Made by a program: the position numbers and the translations under genes. 15,743 bases of DNA from Octopus sinensis (taxonomy: Eukaryota), in contig NW_021825285.1 in the NCBI RefSeq assembly GCF_006345805.1, forward strand, positions 1-15,743, given 5' to 3'. The notes beneath the pieces were generated by a model. The model was not told where the DNA came from and made no database searches. It saw only the letters and a list, made by a program, of their open reading frames with translations. Positions 878 to 15,133 of the stretch are shown here, one piece after another. How positions within the stretch are numbered: position 1 is the stretch's first letter; the number at the start of each line of letters is the position of its first letter.

Positions 878-1705
878 GCCCTGATACGGTACCAGGCAGT
901 GGCTCTCATGGCTTCTGATCTTAACTGATTGAAGTGTTAATCATGTACATTGTTTTGTCTTGGTATAAAAGATGGCTACAGCAAAATTCTGCTCAATACC
1001 ACAGATTTGCTAATGCCCTGATGCAGTACCAGGCAGTGGCTCTCATGGCTTCTGATCTTAACTGATTGGAAGTGTTATCATGTACATTGTTTTGTCTTGG
1101 TATAAAAGATCTGCTACAGCAAATATTCTGCTCAATACCACAGATTTGCTAATGCCCTGATGCAGTACCAGACATTGGCTCTCATGGCTTCTGATCTTAA
1201 CTGATTGGAAGTGTTATCATGTACATTGTTTTGTCTTGGTATAAAAGATGGGCTACAGCAAATATTCTGCTCAATACCACAGATTTGCGTGTCTGTTGTT
1301 TGACCTAGCCAGTTGAGCATGTCCCTTAGTGGCTGACGATATGTGCATCTCTGATCACGAGCAGAAGTAGTGGGGGGCATCATAGCCGAGTGTTGAGAGG
1401 GATTCTTTGGGGTTTGAATAATTCACCTCTGGAAACTTGGGTGTTTCGTTCAATATCCTTAAACAACCCTTATTCAGGGCCCTTTTGAGCGGGATACGTT
1501 ACTCAACCAGAAGAAAATTCTAACTGGGCCCCACCTGCAAGGTCATGCGCTGTTTATCTTGATATGAGATCACCATGTCACGCACATATGGTTGTGATGC
1601 ATGTGCCTGGTGTACCCTTATCAGACGGGTAGTCATGATGAGTATACTGGGCTTTGTATATTTTACCCTAGTGTCACTTTGATGGCATGCACTGCTCTCT
1701 CACTC
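875..1705 (+). mobile_element. Non-coding interspersed element (~555 bp) embedded in (AAT)n, with its left-terminal ~138 bp present three times in tandem
   Basis: Units start AATGCCCTGAT at 875, 1012 and 1151. The third continues into a unique body to 1705. (AAT)n flanks both sides. Orientation is a guess. Confidence 0.7.

Positions 1706-1755
<50 letters not shown>
1706..1755. repeat. (AAT)n microsatellite
   Basis: Perfect AAT run. Confidence 0.97.
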
Positions 1756-1756
<1 letters not shown>

Positions 1757-1915
1757 TTCATTTATTTGCCACAAGGACGAAGGATGACGGGGACAGTAGT
1801 ACAAAGACAGACATAAATTGTGGGGGCTGTGTTCCCGCTGTGTCGAAATAGCAGCCAAATCTCCCTCAAACTACAAAGGGCCAGGTTGAATATCTGCAGT
1901 CTGCTGGTTACTTAC

Positions 1916-1925
1916 ATCGAGACGT
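1916..1925 (-). other. Possible 10-nt micro-exon
   Basis: Minus strand: TTCCCAATTTCTGTCAG|ACGTCTCGAT|GTAAGT (canonical acceptor and consensus donor). Confidence 0.2.
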
Positions 1926-1949
1926 CTGACAGAAATTGGGAATGCTATC

Positions 1950-2282
1950 GCCATCACCACCACCGACACCACCGCCATTACCAACACTATAACCATGCTA
2001 CAAGTGCTACCAATACCATCAGCCCACCACGACCAACACCACCAAACCAAATCATCATCGCTATCACGACCATCACCTCGACAGACACCACCACCGTCGC
2101 AAACACCGCGGCCAATGCCCTCACCATGACTACAACGTTTACTGACCATCGCCACCAACATCACTGTCACTAACTTCCCCCGTCACCACCACCGCCACCA
2201 TCATCACTACCATCATCACCATCATCATCATCATCATCATCATCACACCAAGCACACCTCCATCACTACGACCACCACTCAC
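1950..2282. repeat. Degenerate (CAC/CAT)n low-complexity tract
   Basis: CAC/CAT/ACC triplet-rich, with near-perfect (CAT)n at about 2210-2245. Confidence 0.9.
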
Positions 2283-2339
2283 CTCCTTACTCTTCCAGAA
2301 GCCTATCACTTTCAACCCACCCCCAACTCAACTGCCAAC

Positions 2340-2752
2340 CACACACACACACACACACATACACACACATGCATACATATACACACAGATACACACACAT
2401 ACACATACGCACACCTACATACATACACACACACATACATACACACACTTACACACACACACATACATGCATACACACACACATACATACACACATACAC
2501 ATACACACACCTACATACATACACACACCTACATACACACACACACATACATACACACACACCTACATACATACACACACACATACATACATACACACAC
2601 ATACATACACACACCTACATACACACATGCATACATACGTACACACACATACACATACATACACACACACACATACGTACATACACAAACACGTACGTAC
2701 GTACACGCACGCATGCATGCATACGTACATATACGCGCGCACTCACGCACAC
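2340..2752. repeat. Compound (CA)n/(CATA)n microsatellite
   Basis: Seen directly. Source of the HTY/VCM-rich spurious ORFs. Confidence 0.97.
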
Positions 2753-2768
2753 CCACCCGTCAACCCAC

Positions 2769-2818
2769 CCGAACGGAAGCCGTGAGGTCGTTGAGTACAC
2801 GGAAGGCAGACATGACGG
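2769..2818 (-). CDS. Candidate 50-nt internal exon of an unidentified minus-strand gene (xVMSAFRVLNDLTASVR)
   Basis: Non-repetitive GC-balanced island between microsatellites. Minus strand TTTTTTGTGTTGTGTTCCAG|CCGTC...GTTCGG|GTGGGT. Open frame. Confidence 0.35.
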
Positions 2819-2884
2819 CTGGAACACAACACACAAAAAATAACAACTGTAGCAACAACACCAACAACAACTACAAGACTTTTG

Positions 2885-3159
2885 ATACATACATACACAC
2901 ATATATATATATACCACACACATATATATGTATATATATATATGTATGTCTATATATGTATTATATATGCAACCACACAACACACACAATTATATTATAT
3001 AATCTATATATATATATATAATTATATATAATTATATATCTGTATGTGTATGTATATATTATATATATATATATTATATATATACATAAATATATACACA
3101 CGCTTGTGTGCTATGGAAGATATGTATACATGTATATATACAATTATATAGGGGCATAT

Positions 3160-3201
<42 letters not shown>

Positions 3202-3249
3202 TACACCACAAACAAACACACACTTACATAGACATATGTGCGTGCATAC

Positions 3250-3286
<37 letters not shown>

Positions 3287-3435
3287 CATGCAGACACACA
3301 CACATAGGTATGTATATATACATGCATACACACATTATTTGAATTGGCTATATAGAAAAAGAAAGAAAGAAAGAATGAAAGAAAGAAGATGAAAGAGTGA
3401 GAGACATACACACACATATATATACATACACGCAC
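2885..3435. repeat. Compound (TA)n/(CA)n/(GAAA)n microsatellite region
   Basis: Seen directly. Confidence 0.95.
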
Positions 3436-4834: not shown

Positions 4835-5140
4835 TATAATATACAATAGCTTCAAGTTTGTTGCAGTGTAGTTGTCTGACCTACAGCCCAGAAAGTCTAA
4901 ACCTGAATTTATCAATAAAACTCCAAAAATACATTCCCTGAGCCCTGATAATTCTAAAATTTGACTAAGACTTGTTTTTCAAAAACAATGATTGATCTGG
5001 TAAAACGTAATATTTTAACTACTGCTAAATTTCCTGAGCATGTATGCCTCACTGTCCAATTAAGGATCCTCGTAACTCAATTAGCACAAGGTTTCATTTG
5101 TCCTAAGTCCGACACTGCTGACGAGATATGCCGAATCTTT

Positions 5141-5947
5141 GGGTCTTTTCGGTTTGACCGGCAGTTTTTTAAAAATAATTTCTAGGTAACTAAAAAAATT
5201 TCGAACTTCGTATACTGGTAGAATGTGTTTATAAAACATCTTTTTTCTCTTGGCTTTATTGAGAAAATTCTATAGTTTGTAAGATATTTGTTGCTTTTTT
5301 TTTCTTCACTTTCTGCAATTTCAACCAATCAATGACGTCTATTGAGGTAAAAAAAAAAAACATTCTGTGCCGTATGAATATGTCCCTCGTTTAAGAAACA
5401 GATTGGGTCTATTTACATTTGTGAAGAAAAAAAGATACCCTTCCCCCCACCCCTAACCCTAACCCTAAAACAGATTGAAATGCAATAGATCGATTCTAGG
5501 GTCATAATTATGGGTGACAATTTCATATGACACCGCTGGGAAAAACTGCTGTTCAAACCGAAAAGATCCCCTAACCCTAACTAACCCTAAAACAGATTAA
5601 AATGCAATAGATCGATACTAGGGTCATAATTATGGGTGACAATTTCATATGACACCGCTGGGAAAAACTGCTGTTCAAACCGAAAAGATCCCCTAACCCT
5701 AACTAACCCTAACCCTAAAACAGATTAAAATGCAATAGATCGATACTAGGGTCATAATTATGGGTGACAATTTCATATGATACCGCTGGGAAAAACTGCT
5801 GTTCAAACCGAAAAGATCCCCTAACCCTAACTAACCCTAACCCTAAAACAGATTAAAATGCTATAGATCGATTCTAGGGTCATAATTATGGGTGACAATT
5901 TCATATGACACCGCTAGAAAAAACTGCCGTTCAAACCGGAAAGATCC
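5141..5947. mobile_element. MITE with 30-bp TIRs and 8-bp TSD (Merlin- or hAT-like)
   Basis: Left TIR GGGTCTTTTCGGTTTGACCGGCAGTTTTTT (5141-5170) vs reverse complement of 5918-5947, 27/30 identical. GAATCTTT duplicated at 5133-5140 and 5948-5955. Confidence 0.88.
5451..5947. repeat. Tandem array of four ~119-128-bp units, each with CCCTAA repeats and a right-TIR copy
   Basis: Units end in AAGATCC at 5569, 5691, 5819 and 5947. Confidence 0.93.
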
Positions 5948-6403: not shown

Positions 6404-6811
6404 AGTATGGAAACTCCAAAGAAGGCGGCATTTTGTCCCTTAATTCCCAGGCGGCGTTTATGCTTTTAAAGCGGTTGACACCGCTGGATAGAATGGTAAT
6501 GGTTTGAAATGGTTACTTTCAGTTTGAAAACAGCTATTTGAATCTCGAATCTCATATCAGAGTAACTCACTGTAAACATTATTATTAAGATTGAAATAAA
6601 AATTATCCCCACAAAAAAGCCATTTCTACTCATTCTTTCAAACACACACACACACACCACACACACACGCACACACACGCACACACACGCACACACATAT
6701 ATATATATATAAAGTTAATCCAAACAAGAAAGCACAAAAAAACACAACAACGCGAGGACGTGGAACAAGTATAGTATTATTGGACGCTCAGGAAAGAAGG
6801 GAAGAAGGAGG

Positions 6812-6846
6812 GTTTAACGTTTCGAGCGGAGCTCTTCGTCGGAAAC
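6812..6846 (-). ncRNA. Minimal type I hammerhead-like motif (Penelope-type) in a ~200-bp insert (about 6712-6916)
   Basis: Minus strand GUUU-CCGACGA-A-GAGC(UCC)GCUC-GAAA-CG-UU-AAAC. Stem I GUUU/AAAC, stem II 4 bp, loopless palindromic stem III. Core has U4C and an extra A. Confidence 0.5.
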
Positions 6847-6924
6847 ATAGGAGAAGGAAAGATCCAGAGAAGGGAAGACAGAGGGAAAACATCGCCAACG
6901 GTACACACGCGGTCAATGGCGATT

Positions 6925-6998
6925 GTATTTGTCTTCCTCCCACTAAACGTTTGACGTACCCGTAACTTAGCGGTTCGGCAAAAGAGTACAATAAAATC
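6925..6998 (+). repeat. Degenerate internal fragment of SINE family A
   Basis: CCCGTAACTTAGCGGTTCGGCAAAAGAG matches about 6248-6275. Confidence 0.7.
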
Positions 6999-7002
6999 AA
7001 TT

Positions 7003-7519
7003 AGCTTAATGACCACCTCGAGAACCCAGTTTCCATAACAACTGTTCGCCGGGAGCTGCACAAACCCGGATTTCATGGGAGGGTTGCAATCAGAAAACCA
7101 CTACTTTCAAAAACATACTTTGCAAAGCGCTTAGAGTGTGGAGTAAAAACCTACAGAATTGGTCCCTAGAGCAGTGGAAGAATGTTCTTTTCTTGGACGA
7201 GTCATCCTTTACCATATTTCCAAAGTTTACGTGTGGAGACAGCCAAAAGAAGCATTTGACCCAGACTGCCTTCTTCTAACTGTTCAACATGGAGGAGGAT
7301 CTGTGATGATCGGGTGTGTGTGTGTGTGGGGGGGCTATATCTCAGAAATCCACCGGTTCAGTGGTTTCCATTCGTGGCAGGATTATTTAAGCATTTTATC
7401 GGATCAAATTCATCCTATGGTTGCGAAACTGCTTCCGGAAGGAAGCGCAATCTTTCCGGATTCACAAAGCTAAAATTGTTACTGAATGGCACGAGGAACA
7501 TTCTAGTGAAGTTGAACAT
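7003..7519 (+). pseudogene. Internal fragment of the same Tc1-family transposase as 9499-11021
   Basis: Inverted copy of about 10035-10571. Encodes VYVWRQPKEAFDPDCLLLTVQHGGGSVMI and ILSDQIHPMVAKLLPEG, with frameshifts and deletions. Confidence 0.9.
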
Positions 7520-7541
7520 GGAGTGCTTCTTTTGGAACAGT

Positions 7542-7596
<55 letters not shown>

Positions 7597-7696
7597 TATT
7601 GATAAAAATGGTAAGACAACAAAAGAATGAAAGAGACCTCGATATTATGTAAAAAGAGAAATTTATCTGTAAATGTGACAATTATTCGGTAGCCAT

Positions 7697-7757
7697 GATA
7701 AAACTCCGAGTTTCGGATGCTGAGGTGGAAATCCACGCCGCCATCTCTTCAGTTATC
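7697..7757 (-). ncRNA. Type I hammerhead ribozyme motif
   Basis: Minus strand GAUAA-CUGAAGA-GAUG...GUGGA(UU)UCCAC...CAUC-C-GAAA-CUCGGAG-UU-UUAUC. Stem I GAUAA/UUAUC. One extra C at the base of stem II. GUU triplet. Confidence 0.65.
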
Positions 7758-7834
7758 AGGCCATCGGAAAAAAATGGTATGAAAATGACTGTTATATACA
7801 CTCGGAGTTTTATCATGGCAACCAAATAATTGTC

Positions 7835-7863
<29 letters not shown>

Positions 7864-7868
<5 letters not shown>

Positions 7869-8508
7869 CTAAATTCGGTGTGTGGTGAGGCAAATCGTTG
7901 CTAAACCCTTAATTACTTAGTATTACTTAAACTTTCCTCAAATGGGGCTTTTACATGCCGAAATCTACATGGTGAAATTAATGATTATTCTAAATTAATT
8001 AATTTCTCCCTACATTATTACTGATAACCATAGTTCATCCCGGTAAATGACCACAACATCTTGTCTTGGCTGCACGCTGGTAGGAGGGGGCTGGTGACAC
8101 AGACTTTCATTCACACTTTGAATTTGGCGATACTAGTAATGGCTTTGGCTCGCTCTGATACTATCAGTTGAGATGATGTCTTCTAGTACCGCGAAATTTA
8201 ATATACAATTATTCATAATTGTAATATCCTACGCTGATGAGAAAAGAAGTTGGGTAAGACAAGATTATCTAATCCTTATGCTTTCCTAAAACTTGATTTC
8301 GAAACGTACGTCCGTAGGTGACTTTTTATTGTATGATCGATTGTCGTCATTTTCTCTCTCTTGCCTGTCTGTGTTTGCCTTTCAAGTGCTGTGGTTTTAC
8401 TGAGATCTCCCTTTTAGTAGAAAGGAATAGCTATAACTCTTTGACTGCTATTTCTAAATTCGGTGTGTGGTGAGGCAAATCGTTGCTAAACCCTTAATTA
8501 CTTAGTAT
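7864..8508 (+). mobile_element. Retrozyme/Penelope-like non-coding element: 585-nt unit with 60-bp terminal direct repeats and an internal hammerhead
   Basis: 7864-7923 is identical to 8449-8508. (TA)n on both flanks. No ORF of 60 aa or more. Hammerhead at 8228-8318. Confidence 0.75.
8228..8318 (+). ncRNA. Type I hammerhead ribozyme with intact core
   Basis: CCUACG-CUGAUGA-GAAA...UUUC-GAAA-CGUACG-UC-CGUAGG. Stem I 6 bp perfect, stem II GAAA/UUUC extended by AAGUU/AACUU, palindromic stem III. Predicted cleavage after GUC at 8312. Confidence 0.85.
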
Positions 8509-8781
8509 ATATACATATATATATATATATATACGTGTGTGTGTGTGTCTCTTAAGCATTGTGAGACTAATAACCTAGTGTAGAACCAATATACATGTTT
8601 CAGAACGGCACCCCATCTGTCGAGAGATGAATGTTATTTACTAAGGCACAATACATGTTTTTATATGCGACTCATAGTTTCATACGTTGAAAAATATCCC
8701 AAAACATATTCATCAGGCACAAAACAAATATAGCAAACTAAAAACTGAATGAGAGAAGAAACGCGACAAGTTGAGATGGAA

Positions 8782-9181
8782 GGCAGACACGTTAGCGCGC
8801 CGGGCGAAATGCTTAGCAGTATTTCGTCTGTCGCTACGTTCTGAGTTCAAATTCCGCCGAGGTCGACTTTGCCTTTCATCCTTTCGGAGTCGATAAAATA
8901 AGTACCAGTTTCGCACTGGGGTCGATGTAATCGATTTAATCCGTTTGTCTGTCCTTGTTTGTCCTCTCTATGTTTAGCCCCTTGTGGGTAGTAAAGAAAT
9001 AGGTATTTCTGTTTTTACGTTCTGAGTTCAAACTCCGCCGAGGTCGACTTTGCCTTTCATCCTTTCGGGGTCGATAAATAAAGTACCAGTTACGCACTGG
9101 GGTCGATGTAATCGACTTAATCCCTTTGTCTGTCCTTGTTTGTTCCCTCTGTGTTTAGCCCCTTGTGGGCAATTAAGAAAT
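8782..9181 (+). mobile_element. tRNA-derived SINE family B, dimeric (head + two ~181-bp units)
   Basis: B-box-like GAGTTCAAA at 8843 and 9024. Central GTCGACTTTGCCTTTCATCCTTTCGG domain twice. Tail ...CCCTTGTGGG..AAGAAAT twice. Confidence 0.9.
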
Positions 9182-9549
9182 GTATATAGAAAACGTGGAA
9201 GGTTAACAAATACATTGATATGCCAGGTTTGGAGAAAGCTTCAATATGGTTATGATAACCCGTTCTTAGGTGGAGCTGGTGTTAAATGCCATTTGACAAT
9301 TATGATATTACTCTAAAGATGGGGAAAATTTCCTAAACCCAAGTATTTAATATATCTATGTTTGTCTACGTTGTTCAAATGCACGTCACTGGCCACTTTA
9401 AGTATTTCCCTTGGTTTATAGTTTTAATGCTTGCGAAAATGCAGATATGTGTGTGTGTGTGGGGGGGTGTATGTGTGTTGTGTGTGTGTGTGTGTTTACA
9501 GGGGTTGGGCAAAATAATGGAAGCACCTTAAAATTTCAAACAAATTTAA

Positions 9550-10832
9550 TTTAATACAGCTTGGATTCTACGAGGTATGTACTCGTACACTCATGCTCCA
9601 GAGCGTCGGCTGCGGGGTCACTCCGAAAAGCTCTATCTGCGACCATTTCATCTCATTCGAAGGAGAGGGGCTTTCTCCGTCCGGGTTGCGGATCCGTGGA
9701 ATAAGCTGCCGGACGGGATAGTGAAGATGCCGACGACCGCTCGGTTCAAAGTCTCTCTTGACCAGAAATGGCCTGAACTCTTTACATGAACACCCTCCCT
9801 GTACATAACTCCATGTCCCCCTACATGGCCTTGCTTTTTGCTTTTTGAGCCAAAAAATTAACTTAACAAAGTTTGAATCGTTTCCAAAGGAATTTTTGTG
9901 CATTCTTCAGCTAAAACAGTCTCCAGTTCTTGTAGTGACGATGGTGGAGGATATTGACTCCTTACTTTTTTTTCTAAAATGCACCATAAATGTTCAATAA
10001 TATTGAGATCTGGGGACTGTGGTAGCCAGATAAGATGTTCAACTTCACTAGAGTGTTCCTCGTGCCATTCAGTAACAACTTTAGCTGTGTGAATTGGTGC
10101 ATTATCACCCGTAAAGATTGTGTTTCCTTCCGGAAGCAGTTCCGCAACCACTGGATGAATTTGATCAGATTAAATGCTTAAATAGTCTTGACTATTAATT
10201 CGGTCATGAATGGAAACCATTGGGCCGGCGGATTTCTAAGATTAGCCCCCACCAGATCATCACAGATCCTCCTCCATGTTTAACAGCTGGAAGAAAGCAG
10301 TCTGGGTCAAATGCTTCTTTTGGCTGTCTCCACATGTATACTTGGCCGGTGGCCGGAAATAGGGTAAAGGATGACTCGTCCGAGAAAATAACATTCTTCC
10401 ACTACTCTAGGGACCAATTCTATAGGTTTTTACTCCACTCTAAACACTTTGCAACGTTTGTTTTTGAAAGTAGTGGTTTTCTGATTGCAGCCCTCCCATG
10501 AAATCCGGCTTTGTGCAGCTCTTGGGGAACAGTTCTTGTGGAAACTGGGTTCTCGAGGTGGTCGTTAAGCTCTGCAGTAATTCGGGGAGCTCTACTTTTG
10601 TGATCCTTTCTAACAATTCGCGAAGGATTTCAAAGGCCCTATCTCTAGGTTTTGGGGTTTTTCCGGAGTTTTGTTTCGACGAGAAGGTTTTTCTCTCTTT
10701 CTCGAAAGCTGTCATTACTTTCGAGACAGTAATTCTAGACACACCAAGCATTTCGGCAGTTTTCGTTACGCTAGCGCCTGTCATACGAGCATCAACAATT
10801 TGACCTCTTTGAAAGTTCGATAGATCTGTCAT
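9550..10832 (-). pseudogene. Tc1-like transposase pseudogene (DD36E), frameshifted and LINE-interrupted
   Basis: N-terminal HTH region MTDLSNFQRGQIVDARMTGASVTKTAEMLGVSR. Motifs VIFSDESS, GDNAPIH and WLPQSPDLNIIEHLW. C-terminal YEYIPRRIQAVL continues left of the LINE insert. Confidence 0.9.
9590..9867 (+). mobile_element. 5'-truncated CR1-group LINE 3' end inserted in the transposase
   Basis: Encodes RGHSEKL...FSVRVADPWNKLP...FKVSLD, typical of the CR1/L2-group ORF2 C-terminus. Stop at 9787-9789, short 3' UTR, TTAAC-repeat tail, ACA at both junctions. Confidence 0.82.
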
Positions 10833-11033
10833 TTTGATGCATTTTAATTACATTTTTCTGATGATATCGGAAAGGAAACGGCAATTTTAGCAAAACGTAT
10901 TAAGCAAAACTAATAATTAATCAAAAAATATTAAAATAAACAAGCTTTTGACGGTTTTATAGATATTTCAAAATTATGATGCTACGATGCTTGGTGTTCC
11001 CATTGTTTTGTCCAAGCCCTGTATATATATATA

Positions 11034-11432
11034 TACTCTTTTACTCTTTTACTTGTTTCAGTCATTTGACTGCGGCCATGCTGGAGCACCGCCTTTAGTC
11101 GATCAAATCGATCCCGGGACTTATTCTTTGTAAGCCCAGTACTTATTCTATCGTTCTCTTTTGCCGAATTGCTAAGTAACGGGGACGTAAACATACCAGC
11201 ATCGTTTGTCAAGCAATGCTAGGGGGACAAACACAGACACACAAACACACACATATATATATACATATATACGACGGGCTTCTTTCAGTTTCCGTCTACC
11301 AGATCCACTCACAAGGCTTTGGTCGGCCCGGGGCTATAGCAGAAGACACTTGCCCAAGATGCCACGCAGTGGGACTGAACCCGGAACCGTGTGGTTGGTA
11401 AGCACGCTACTTACCACGCAGCCACTCCTGCG
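11034..11432 (-). mobile_element. SINE family A, full length
   Basis: A-box-like TGGCTGCGTGGTAA, B-box-like GGTTCAGTCCC, tail (GTAAAAGA)n, flanked by (TA)n. Confidence 0.93.
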
Positions 11433-11608
11433 TATATATAATACCGTATGAATGGAATTCAACAAGCGTAAATTTTGTTAACGCTTGTTGTCTCTTTGTT
11501 TGTATGTATGCATGTCTATCTACCGATGAGTCTAACTCCCTGCATAGCCGTATAACTGTTTCTATATGTATCTATTTGTCAATCTGCTTATCTCTCTATT
11601 TTGTATTT

Positions 11609-12195
11609 ATTTCTTCATTGCCCACAGGGGGCTAAACATGGAGGGGACAAACAAGGATAGACAAACGGATTAAGTCGATTATATCGACCCCAGTGCGTGA
11701 CTGGTACTTATTTAATCGACCTCGAAAGGATGAAAGGCAAAGTCGAGCTCGGCGGAATTTGAACTCAGAACGTAACGGCAGACGAATTGCCTATTTCTTT
11801 ACTACCCACAAGGGGTTAAACACAGAGAGGACAAACAAGGACAGACAAACGGATTAAGTCGATTATATCGACCCCAGTGCGTGACTGGTACTTATTTAAT
11901 CGACCTCGAAAGGATGAAAGGCAAAGTCGACCTCGGCGGAATTTGAACTCAGAACGTAGCGGCAGACGAAATACCTATTTCTTTACTACCCACAAGGGGT
12001 TAAACACAGAGAGGACAAACAAGGACAACAAACGGATTAAGTCGATTATATCGACCCCAGTGCGTAACTGGTACTTATTTAATTGACCCCGAAAGGATGA
12101 AAGGCAAAGTCGACCTCGGCGGAATTTGAACTCAGAACGTAGCGGCAGACGAAATACCGCTAAGAATTTCTCCTGGCGTGCTAACGTTTCTGCCA
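11609..12195 (-). mobile_element. SINE family B, trimeric (head + three ~184-bp units)
   Basis: GAACTCAGAAC at 11761, 11945 and 12128. Head TGGCAGAAACGTTAGCACGCC at the right end. Confidence 0.92.
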
Positions 12196-12541
12196 CGATC
12201 CTTCTATCTATGTCTGTTAAAATATCTAAAAATATTAAAATATCCATCTATTTGCCAATCAAACTGTCTACATGTCTATTTGTCAATCTATCTGTTTACC
12301 TCTATCTATCTACCGAGCTATGAAACTGTCTATCTTTTTGTCTATCTGCATATTTAAATAATGAGGGAGATAAAAATTGAATATTAATTTATTAATATCA
12401 ATTTAAAACCAGGAATTTAGCGCGCCAGAACTCATACATTTTAAATTAACCCCAATGTAATCGGTGGAACTAAGCACGTGTCTGTTTTTTATACGGAAAA
12501 CCGGTGGTTAGTTTTACAAATTATATTGCTTTTGGAACGAT

Positions 12542-12610
12542 CGTACTGATGAGTCCTACAAACGAAGGACTACGTAAGTGATTTATTCGTTAATAGACGA
12601 AACCAGTATG
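12542..12610 (+). ncRNA. Degenerate hammerhead-like motif in an AT-rich insert (about 12355-12780)
   Basis: CGUA-CUGAUGA-GUC...GAC-GAAA-CCAG-UAUG. Both core halves and stems I/II are present, but stem III and the NUH triplet appear deleted. Confidence 0.4.
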
Positions 12611-12888
12611 CTTAATTCTTCATTTTTATATAATTTTCATCTGTCTCGCCTGCCTATTGTTCTGGTGTCCGCTGAATTTTCTCTAGAGAACATTCTTTCT
12701 TTCTTTGTAGTTTGATCGTAGGTGATCTATTTCTAGCATATGGCTGTCCACATAGTGGTTTTTAGCCCTTAAAATATACACATGTCTATCTCCATATGTA
12801 GCTTGTCTGTCTACCTGTCTGTCCCTCTGCCAGTCCGCCTATTTCTCTCTCTAGCTATGTCTACCCTACCTAACGGGCTTCTTTATCT

Positions 12889-13250
12889 GTAGCAAGGATG
12901 GCACGTATGAATGAAGAAGCCACTTTCAGCATGATCCCATGAACCGTAAAAATTTAAAACAGAGACTTACTTATTTGCAAATAAAAATGTTAATATGGGA
13001 CATTACTGCCCGAGGTTACTGTGGTTTTTTCGTAGGTTTTTCTTTCCACAGATAAACCTCCCCATTTCTTGAGAACTTTTTGTACCATTTTGACTTTTTT
13101 TTGCGTATATCCCCAACGATTTCGATCCATTTTGATCGTTGTCCCTATTTTTTTTTTTTTTACTTTGTTTCGCCCACCCCCCCTCGAAAACAAAAACTCT
13201 ACATTGTAATTGTCCGCTCTGTGTCTAGCCTGTGTGGCCAATAAAGAAAT
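12889..13250 (+). mobile_element. Putative LINE 3' end (ORF tail + 3' UTR) sharing its tail with SINE B
   Basis: Short frame VARMARMNEEATFSMIP* (12889-12942), T-rich UTR, terminal TTGTCCGCTCTGTGTCTAGCCTGTGTGGCCAATAAAGAAAT resembling the SINE B tail. Confidence 0.45.
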
Positions 13251-13285
13251 CTATCAATCTATCTATCTGTTTGTCTGTCTATATA

Positions 13286-13702
13286 TACTCTTACTCTACT
13301 CTTTTACTCTTTTACTTGTTTCAATCATTTGACTGTGGCCATGCTGGGGCACCGCCTTTAGTCGAGCAAATCGACCCCGGATCTTACTCTTTGTAAGCCC
13401 AGTACTTATTCTATCGGTCTTTTTTGCCGAACCGCTAAGTGACGGGGACGTAAACACACCAGCATCGGTTCTCAAGCGATGTTGGTGGGGGGGCAAACAC
13501 AGACACACAAACATATAAACACACATATATATATATACATATATACGACAGGCTTCTTTCAGTTTCCGTCTACAAAATCCACTCACAAGGCATTGGTCAG
13601 CCCGGGGCTATAGCAGAAGACACTTGCCCAAGATGCCACGCAGTGGGACTGAACCCAGAACCATGAGGTTGGTTAGCAAGCTACTTACCACACAGCCACT
13701 CC
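13286..13702 (-). mobile_element. SINE family A, near full length
   Basis: Colinear with 11034-11432. (TA)n on both flanks. Confidence 0.93.
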
Positions 13703-13761
13703 TATATATATATATCTTTTTATCGGTCTGTTTATCTATCTAGCTAGCTAAGAATCTATTT

Positions 13762-13762
13762 G

Positions 13763-13816
<54 letters not shown>

Positions 13817-13860
13817 AATTTATCTGTCTGTCTCGCAAGCTAGATAGAGAGCTATCTAAC

Positions 13861-13903
<43 letters not shown>
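13762..13903. repeat. (TCTA)n and (CT)n microsatellites
   Basis: Seen directly. Confidence 0.95.
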
Positions 13904-13906
<3 letters not shown>

Positions 13907-14138
13907 CCTCTGTCTTCCAGTCCATCTCTCTGTCCGTTATCTTTCTGCCTGCCTGCCTGTCTGCCTGACTGCCTGTCTATCCGTCGCCAGTCTGTCTATC
14001 CAAGCAATCCCAGTGTACAATATGTGGGTGTTAAAAGAGAGATAGAAGCGTTAGAAGACAAGGGATTGAAGTGACGGCGTTATGAAAGGGAGTGGCCCTT
14101 CCTTTTAACGTTTTTGGCACCGAGGACCGATCCCTTAC

Positions 14139-14201
14139 CGAAATTATTCCTAGTGTGTTTTGATTTCTGTTTTCAATTGTAGTTTGTGAATGAGTAGGTG
14201 G
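14139..14201 (-). other. Possible 63-nt exon ([21 protein letters not shown])
   Basis: Minus strand GTCTCTCAG|CCACCT...ATTTCG|GTAAGG, one open frame. Acceptor is weak. Confidence 0.2.
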
Positions 14202-14304
14202 CTGAGAGACTGGCTCTCTTCCTCTGTGTGTGTGTGTTGTGTGTGTGTGTGTGTGTTGTGTGTGTGTCTGTGTGTGTGGTATATTTATAATTGATACAGA
14301 CAGG

Positions 14305-14365
14305 CTGATAGATAGATATATAGAGATAGACAGATAGACAGATACAGATAAACAAATAAGAAAAC

Positions 14366-14419
<54 letters not shown>

Positions 14420-14440
14420 GTAGGTAGGTAGGTAGGTAGG

Positions 14441-14494
<54 letters not shown>

Positions 14495-14517
14495 TAGATA
14501 GATAGACAGAAGGTAGG

Positions 14518-14584
<67 letters not shown>

Positions 14585-14728
14585 GCAGAGAGACAGATAG
14601 ATAAAGACAGACAGACAGAGAGAGACAGATAGAAAGACAGACAGGTAGACAAGCAGACAGACAGACATATAGATAGAGAGAGAGAGGGGTAGAGAGAAAG
14701 AGGGGTGGAGAGAGAGAGAGGGGTGGAG

Positions 14729-14826
<98 letters not shown>

Positions 14827-14836
14827 GTAGATAGAT
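14305..14836. repeat. Compound (GATA)n/(GACA)n/(GGTA)n microsatellite
   Basis: Seen directly. Source of the LSIY-repeat spurious ORFs. Confidence 0.97.
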
Positions 14837-14913
14837 CAATTGGATCGATTAAATGGAGCCGCTCGAAACGGCCGTAATGTATTGATACCTGGACATCCTT
14901 GTTACTTATTTAC

Positions 14914-14963
<50 letters not shown>

Positions 14964-15030
14964 AATGGCGAGAGTGAGTGCTCAGAACACTGCATCAGTG
15001 AATAAAATTTCTTTATTTCTGTATTATTAA

Positions 15031-15087
15031 GGCTACTGTTGGTTTCATGTTAAGGTAAATATCTTAATCTGAACAATTTTTCAAGCC
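15031..15087 (-). ncRNA. Hammerhead-like motif with U3-A8 variant core
   Basis: Minus strand GGC-UUGAAAA-AUUGUU...AACAU-GAAA-CCAACAG-UA-GCC. Stem I 3 bp, GUA triplet. Lies in a ~170-bp insert between (TA)n and (CATA)n. Confidence 0.45.
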
Positions 15088-15133
15088 AATCACATGGAAA
15101 ACTGGCGTTCGTCTCCAATCTGGATGAAAAAAA

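Follow-up and report, generated by a model that had tools for sequence, protein, structure and literature searches.

Hammerhead ribozyme patterns in microsatellite-bordered inserts of an Octopus sinensis contig, likely ends of Penelope-like elements

The stretch of DNA analyzed here, referred to as the window, comprises all 15,743 nt of positions 1 to 15,743 of contig NW_021825285.1 in the Octopus sinensis assembly GCF_006345805.1. It is non-coding and repeat-rich, carrying microsatellites, several copies of repeats resembling short interspersed nuclear elements (SINE-like repeats) and fragments of Tc1-type transposases (Pfam DDE_3 and HTH). Six type I hammerhead ribozyme patterns lie here within about 8 kb, an unusually dense arrangement, and are located in mutually unrelated inserts of 33-46% GC, whose reading frames are closed or without protein match. 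These inserts are likely the pseudo-long terminal repeats (pLTRs) of six or seven families of Penelope-like elements (PLEs), or non-coding derivatives of such elements, copied into TA microsatellites. The inserts and motifs, including one half motif, are listed below.

6712..6915, minus strand: insert 1, about 204 nt; adjoins the (AT)n/(AC)n run 6642-6711 at its 3' end, with the 5' limit placed by eye
6812..6846, minus strand: motif 1, a minimal hammerhead; helix I 4 bp, helix II 4 bp, GUU, cut between 6816 and 6815
7600..7837, minus strand: insert 2, flanked by a (TA)n run on each side; one copy on the minus strand with its end at 7600 and an inverted partial copy ending at 7837
7696..7758, minus strand: motif 2; canonical core CUGAAGA, helix I 6 bp, GUU, cut between 7702 and 7701
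7800..7835, plus strand: inverted arm of insert 2; 36 nt, 34/36 match to 7711-7676, starting at helix III and pointing outward
7864..8508, plus strand: insert 3; a 585-nt unit with a terminal direct repeat of 60 identical nt (7864-7923 = 8449-8508), flanked on each side by a TA run
8228..8318, plus strand: motif 3; canonical core, helix I 6 bp, helix II 4 bp, GUC, cut between 8312 and 8313
8548..8781, minus strand: insert 6; bounded at its 3' end by the (CA)n/(TA)n run 8506-8547 and at its 5' end, at 8782, by a SINE-like repeat
8664..8721, minus strand: motif 6; canonical core CUGAUGA, helix I 5 bp, II 7 bp, III 3 bp, GUC, cut between 8669 and 8668
12543..12611, plus strand: motif 4; canonical core, helix I 3 bp, long imperfect helix II, GUA, cut between 12608 and 12609
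14856..14879, plus strand: candidate half motif; GAAA, 8-nt palindromic helix III and GUA with no 5' core
15031..15087, minus strand: motif 5, the weakest; core UUGAAAA plus A (U3-A8), helix I 3 bp, GUA, cut between 15034 and 15033

The motifs were located with our own descriptor of the type I hammerhead, which in its strict form demands helices I and II of at least 4 bp and a core that is either canonical or of the U4C or U3-A8 variant. The strict descriptor returned three loci, 6812-6846(-), 8228-8318(+) and 8664-8721(-), as compared to 0.01 per shuffled window (300-nt blocks), and none of 150 shuffles contained three. A relaxed form, permitting stems of 3 bp and, in helix II, a single bulge or mismatch, added 7696-7758(-), 12543-12611(+) and 15031-15087(-), raising the number to six versus 0.07-0.13 loci per shuffled window; six loci were reached in none of 200 shuffles at block lengths of 150, 300 and 1000. 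An earlier note on this DNA, made from the letters alone, had reported five motifs, and each of these positions indeed carries a type I pattern according to the descriptor, the overlooked sixth being 8664-8721(-). The comparison with shuffled sequence, which the same note had set as a check, yielded a frequency far in excess of chance. As the descriptor was relaxed after the motifs were already known, the weak motifs, 15031-15087 above all, appear less secure than the total of six. No hammerhead family was among the 78 matches of the window to Rfam 15 up to E 10. At 5118-5140(+), a lone CTGACGA with a short stretch ending in GAA behind it fails the descriptor.

In quality the motifs fall into three grades: clean (3 and 6), good (1 and 2) and weak (4 and 5). 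The expected core (C3 U4 G5 A6 N7 G8 A9 ... G12 A13 A14 A15, U16, H17) is present in motifs 2, 3, 4 and 6, and motifs 1 (U4C) and 5 (U3-A8) depart from it by variants already in print. The helices beside the core are clean in motifs 1, 3 and 6 and weak in 4 and 5; the long helix II of motif 2 is bulged after its first pair. The three traits of the minimal PLE-type hammerhead, namely an extra base after A9, a G10.1-C11.1 pair and a palindromic helix III, are all found in motif 1 (core CCGACGA, extra A, 2-nt helix III, a perfect palindrome with a self-duplex of -1.7 kcal/mol). Motif 3 exhibits the G-C pair and the palindrome only, the latter being a perfect 8-nt one with a self-duplex of -9.8 kcal/mol, and its 52-nt loop II is able to extend helix II. 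Helix III is near-palindromic in motifs 2 and 4 (one base short in motif 4) and not palindromic in motifs 5 and 6. For the half motif, which is located in an insert of 79 nt flanked by (GATA)n and (TA)21, a perfectly palindromic helix III was seen by inspection. The lowest-energy monomer structure contained the full hammerhead fold for none of the six motifs. For motif 4 a competing fold is favored by about 9 kcal/mol, and this motif is probably decayed; motif 5, with its imperfect helix II and a non-palindromic 5-nt loop III, likewise appears decayed.

It is possible, if doubtful, that the weaker patterns (motifs 4 and 5 and the half motif) are chance products of AT-rich repeat debris, in which case only motifs 1, 2, 3 and 6 would be real. 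The post hoc relaxation of the descriptor, the 3-bp helix I of motifs 4 and 5, the lack of a palindromic helix III in motif 5 and the missing read coverage of motifs 4 and 5 argue in this direction. On the other side stand the low yield of even the relaxed descriptor in shuffled windows and, for motif 5, a core variant known from print and an orientation into (TA)21 at a distance of 75 nt. Taken singly, motif 5 has a probability of being a chance pattern that is not far short of even, and for motif 4 such an origin is unlikely.

Beyond the cut site, the insert extends a further 104, 102, 193, 121, 75 and 39 nt to its 3' end for motifs 1, 2, 3, 6, 5 and the half motif, respectively. At five of the seven sites a perfect (TA)5+ run begins within 200 nt 3' of the cut and at a sixth at 203 nt, as compared to 18% of background positions. 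Inserts 2, 3 and 6 follow one another directly with TA runs alone between them, and the insert of motif 5 (14959-15133) ends at (TA)21. That the motifs are sequence-unrelated, as the earlier note had stated, was borne out: with the ribozymes excluded, none of 21 downstream and none of 15 upstream pairs of flanks beat shuffled sequences at the 1% level. An apparent homology between inserts 3 and 4 (5/300 shuffles with the cores included) was rejected after removal of the cores, when 27/500 and 133/500 shuffles scored as well.

Read evidence covered positions 6712-8800 only, i.e. motifs 1, 2, 3 and 6, in four sequencing runs; motifs 4, 5 and the half motif lie outside. The summed contig depths of run X1 represent no copy numbers, and this run possibly stems from the same source as the window and is no independent support. 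The raw-read runs X23 and X24 contributed no more than 3 and 179 placed reads, respectively, from which no copy numbers were derived. Within these limits, insert 1 belongs to the most abundant family of the covered stretch, with a summed X1 depth of 2.2-5.2 million (the exact 209-nt X1 contig has a depth of 46). For insert 2 the summed depth is about 1 million over 7622-7761 and about 49,000 over 7762-7831, for insert 3 it is 40,000-676,000, and for insert 6, which has an exact contig at 8557-8765, it is as low as 1,300-3,400. Inserts 1, 2, 3 and 6 are therefore all repeats, with abundances spanning about three orders of magnitude. Among relatives of insert 3 two strand-switch joints were found, each within a single contig. 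None of the 40 displayed read differences, out of 114, falls into a core; three of them are substitutions in loop II of motif 3. Position 6841, which distinguishes U4 from C4 in the family of insert 1, is not among these 40. In run X24, which is from a related organism, the segments 6715-6768 and 7918-7982 occur as tandem arrays of short units, with a 65-nt back-joint in 119 reads and with loose ends at 6715 and 6768, which suggests that satellites have arisen from the ends of the inserts.

The kind of element described here is already known from many animals, and the motifs of the window are further members of it. Cervera and De la Peña (2014, PMC4209133) describe thousands of such motifs per animal genome, belonging to many unrelated families and mostly solitary, some of them in pairs 100-700 bp apart on opposite strands; solitary PLE hammerheads are explained there by 5' truncation of autonomous elements, and the palindromic helix III is thought to require dimers. 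Individual motifs of the window share with these the type I topology, the short helix I, the extra base after A9, the G10.1-C11.1 pair, the palindromic helix III and the U3-A8 variant. Motif 1 matches the minimal hammerhead consensus of that paper except at U4, the palindromic 4-nt loop III of the printed fly, mosquito and acorn-worm motifs recurs in motif 3 and the half motif, and the U3-A8 core of motif 5 is the one printed for a Schistosoma PLE family. Two features differ: loop II of motifs 3 and 4, with about 40-50 nt, is far longer than in the published alignment, and the U4C exchange of motif 1 is absent from the alignment rows compared. The exchange is known from a viroid, where it lowers in vitro activity and still permits infectivity (PMC3088659). 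Set against the published thousands per genome, six loci in 8 kb are dense, and no cephalopod row occurs in the portion of the alignment compared.

The structure of the inserts points in the same direction. 5'-truncated copies, partial tandems and adjacent inverted copies are standard forms of PLE insertions (Craig et al. 2021, PMC8557442; Arkhipova et al. 2013, PMC3846280), and for Naiad and Hydra PLEs, two octopus Naiads among them, (TA)n is given as the target (PMC8557442). We judge this insertion structure to be present because of the inverted arm of insert 2 and the terminal repeat of insert 3, i.e. in two of seven inserts; the 5'-truncated stubs are a further shared form. For an anole PLE, the start of reverse transcription lies 111-118 nt inside an open reading frame (ORF) whose hammerhead cut is at +26, and the targets are AT-rich (Frangieh et al. 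2024, PMC11167929). The window shows a similar arrangement, with AT-rich targets and 3' ends some 100 nt beyond the hammerhead, and the 102-121 nt from cut to end of inserts 1, 2 and 6 fit the anole geometry and count as support for PLE stubs. The hammerhead of the anole element needs protein and is dispensable for insertion in vitro (PMC11167929).

Because no PLE coding sequence is linked to any of the inserts, which is at the same time a difference from the published insertion units, we only infer PLE membership. Priming at TA and cleavage as dimers are likewise drawn from the published parallels. On this basis, the GIY-YIG endonuclease of a PLE would nick (TA)n DNA, and the reverse transcriptase would start on the element RNA about 40-190 nt 3' of the hammerhead cut. 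An early stop of reverse transcription, the usual case, would then leave a 5'-truncated stub which keeps the hammerhead and loses the ORF, sometimes with an inverted arm as in insert 2 or a partial tandem as in insert 3. As TA would remain on the flank after every insertion, a single run could gather further insertions, as may have happened at 7548-8781 and 14837-15133, thereby clustering unrelated families. The ribozymes would cleave only as dimers or with the help of protein, in tandem transcripts of the source elements, and the solitary copies of the window are probably inert. In the folding model of motif 2, the pairing probability of helix I is 0.88 without and 0.00 with the inverted arm, and the arm is thus predicted to lock the motif in read-through RNA. 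An assignment of motif 2 to type III by use of the inverted arm was discarded, as position 17 would be G and helix I fails.

Several observations weigh against an origin from PLEs copied into TA. No ORF for a PLE reverse transcriptase with GIY-YIG domain is found in the window, which is expected for short stubs and leaves the membership unproven. Two candidate endonuclease-like frames matched no Pfam family, the open frame of insert 1 has no protein homologue, and the fragment upstream of motif 4, compared with 1.84 billion representatives, matched only two repetitive, unrelated proteins. Five window motifs were absent in each of two short-word searches of the portion of the PLE consensus supplement of PMC8557442 compared, where a single 11-mer matched an unrelated Naiad. 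The asymmetry of the arms of insert 2 amounts to about 76 nt versus the 30-40 nt tail described in print. Only four TA runs serve the seven sites, two of them being entered from both sides, so the counts do not represent seven independent events; the SINE-like repeats of the window border TA as well; and target-site duplications are unreadable in microsatellite targets. The earlier statement that the motifs are mostly bordered by microsatellites holds for the insert 3' ends, by their cut-to-TA distances and the excess over background, and does not extend to motif 4, which has no TA run within 900 nt. Finally, the reads lend the ribozymes no significant sign of constraint: the 74 undisplayed differences may include core changes below about 97% share, the lack of listed changes in 39 core and stem bases of motif 3 has a P of 0.20, and the 2.4 kcal/mol by which the majority-letter fold is better was reached by 369 of 2000 random triples.

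Two coding remnants were considered and rejected. The first, a decayed GIY-YIG C-terminus at 12352-12420(+), consists of a broken frame of 20 codons about 125 nt upstream of motif 4 and gave no Pfam match and two spurious repetitive ones. The second, a frame through motif 6 containing YIGST, was regarded as an endonuclease remnant; it has no Pfam match and is unproven. Six short peptide motifs were also absent from the compared portion of the PLE consensus supplement of PMC8557442. In the same source, the printed octopus Naiads lack canonical hammerheads and are no obvious source of the window motifs. By eye, the 15 bases 7744-7758(-), which extend across helix I and the 5' core of motif 2, also occur unchanged at the ORF start in the Naiad_Obim and Naiad_Ovul consensuses; the flanks differ and the identity may be due to chance. 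Exact-pattern relatives were found neither for motif 1 in metagenome and viral contigs nor for motif 3 in metagenome contigs.

Insert 3 in particular invites a different explanation, namely that some or all inserts are monomers of retrozymes without long terminal repeats (non-LTR retrozymes), whose tandem-array transcripts would be cut by the hammerhead, circularized and reinserted by a PLE reverse transcriptase. This overlaps with the PLE origin, since such units are proposed to derive from pLTRs. Insert 3 amounts to 1.1 units of 585 nt with one hammerhead (helices of canonical size, 6 and 4 bp, GUC), 37% GC and many stops in all six frames, and it fits a retrozyme monomer about as well as a PLE stub. 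Like the retrozymes described (PMC7229834; 10.64898/2026.07.22.740005), the inserts are non-coding with GC below 50% and a type I hammerhead, their unit length falls within the published range of 51-972 bp, and monomeric copies are common among those units (10.64898/2026.07.22.740005); circles of this kind are expressed in mussels (PMC7229834). However, two tandem hammerheads, which an active retrozyme demands according to 10.64898/2026.07.22.740005, are not found in any insert of the window, most of its motifs appear to be of the minimal PLE type, and the strand-switch joints of the insert 3 relatives and the inverted arm of insert 2 are of PLE type as well. Moreover, the 60-nt repeat of insert 3 is possibly an assembly duplication. 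We consider a retrozyme origin of some or all inserts distinctly unlikely. Among Xenopus retrozyme dimers only one of nine was reported to cleave (10.64898/2026.07.22.740005).

The earlier note had proposed many independent non-autonomous families located at microsatellites. The existence of several unrelated hammerhead-bearing repeat families follows from the read abundance and the excess over shuffles, whereas their non-autonomous nature does not, as 5'-truncated ends of autonomous PLEs look alike. A specific version, in which the inserts are SINE-like hammerhead elements of the Schistosoma alpha type, with a Pol III promoter of their own and mobilized by a non-PLE reverse transcriptase, appears very improbable. 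Such elements do exist according to a review, and fragments of SINE-like, Tc1 and LINE-like type (the last resembling long interspersed nuclear elements) abound in the window; yet a B-box pattern occurs in none of the seven inserts, the window contains no tRNA gene, no poly(A) tail was seen, and the hammerhead shapes resemble those of PLEs.

The strand distribution bears on a further proposal, that the motifs are under selection as self-cleaving signals in an intron of a host gene, and on the associated claim that three minus-strand motifs would be sense in that intron. Four of the seven motifs are on the minus strand, on which a 63-nt exon-like stretch (14139-14201, one open frame, preceded by CAG and followed by GTAAG) is visible by eye as the sole hint of a host gene. 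Including the sixth motif and the half motif, the strands stand at four minus versus three plus, which is no bias, and no host exon has been confirmed, so that the claim was not sustained. Since, in addition, four inserts belong to repeat families, the monomer folds do not favor the active form, motif 2 is predicted to be locked and motifs 4 and 5 look decayed, we regard selection within an intron as close to negligible in probability. The ends of PLEs remain the preferred reading.

A match to the 5' splice site, GTAAG, lies inside loop II of motif 3 (8254) and of motif 4 (12574) and in no other motif, followed after 133-137 nt by a pyrimidine-rich AG acceptor (8386 and 12710, respectively). 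The background of GTAAG is about 4% per 50 nt, the pattern was noticed after the fact, and spliced reads were not observed. Splicing at these sites would remove the GAAA half and the cut site, and unspliced RNA would keep the ribozyme and could serve as the template for retrotransposition. It is quite improbable, all the same, that two families use the ribozyme as such a splice-or-cleave switch and that the genome is among the most hammerhead-rich known. On this reading, the largest family, that of insert 1, might also be fixed for the U4C core.

As the kind of element is known, the gain lies mainly in annotation and scale. Rfam misses all six motifs. If the density of the window is typical, cephalopod-type genomes would hold a large unlabelled set of PLE-derived hammerheads, many of them perhaps filed as unclassified SINEs, and would offer natural variants (U4C, U3-A8, a 50-nt loop II) for probing the role of the hammerhead in PLEs. 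No dedicated hammerhead study of octopus or other cephalopods was found in the literature listings. The giant squid paper reports 235 Rfam hammerheads (PMC6962438), and a 2026 repeat annotation of Octopus vulgaris lists 31 recently active Penelope-like families, with the words ribozyme and hammerhead absent from its main text (PMC13282606).

Several further repeats were seen in the window. Head-to-tail tandems of 139-nt and about 181-184-nt SINE-like units occupy 875-1288, 8835-9181 and 11608-12158, in which the descriptor finds no hammerhead. At 5453-5947 a 128-nt unit containing CCCTAA telomere-like repeats is present in 3.9 tandem copies, and two Tc1/mariner-type fragments lie in opposite orientation at 7003-7540 and 9858-10900.

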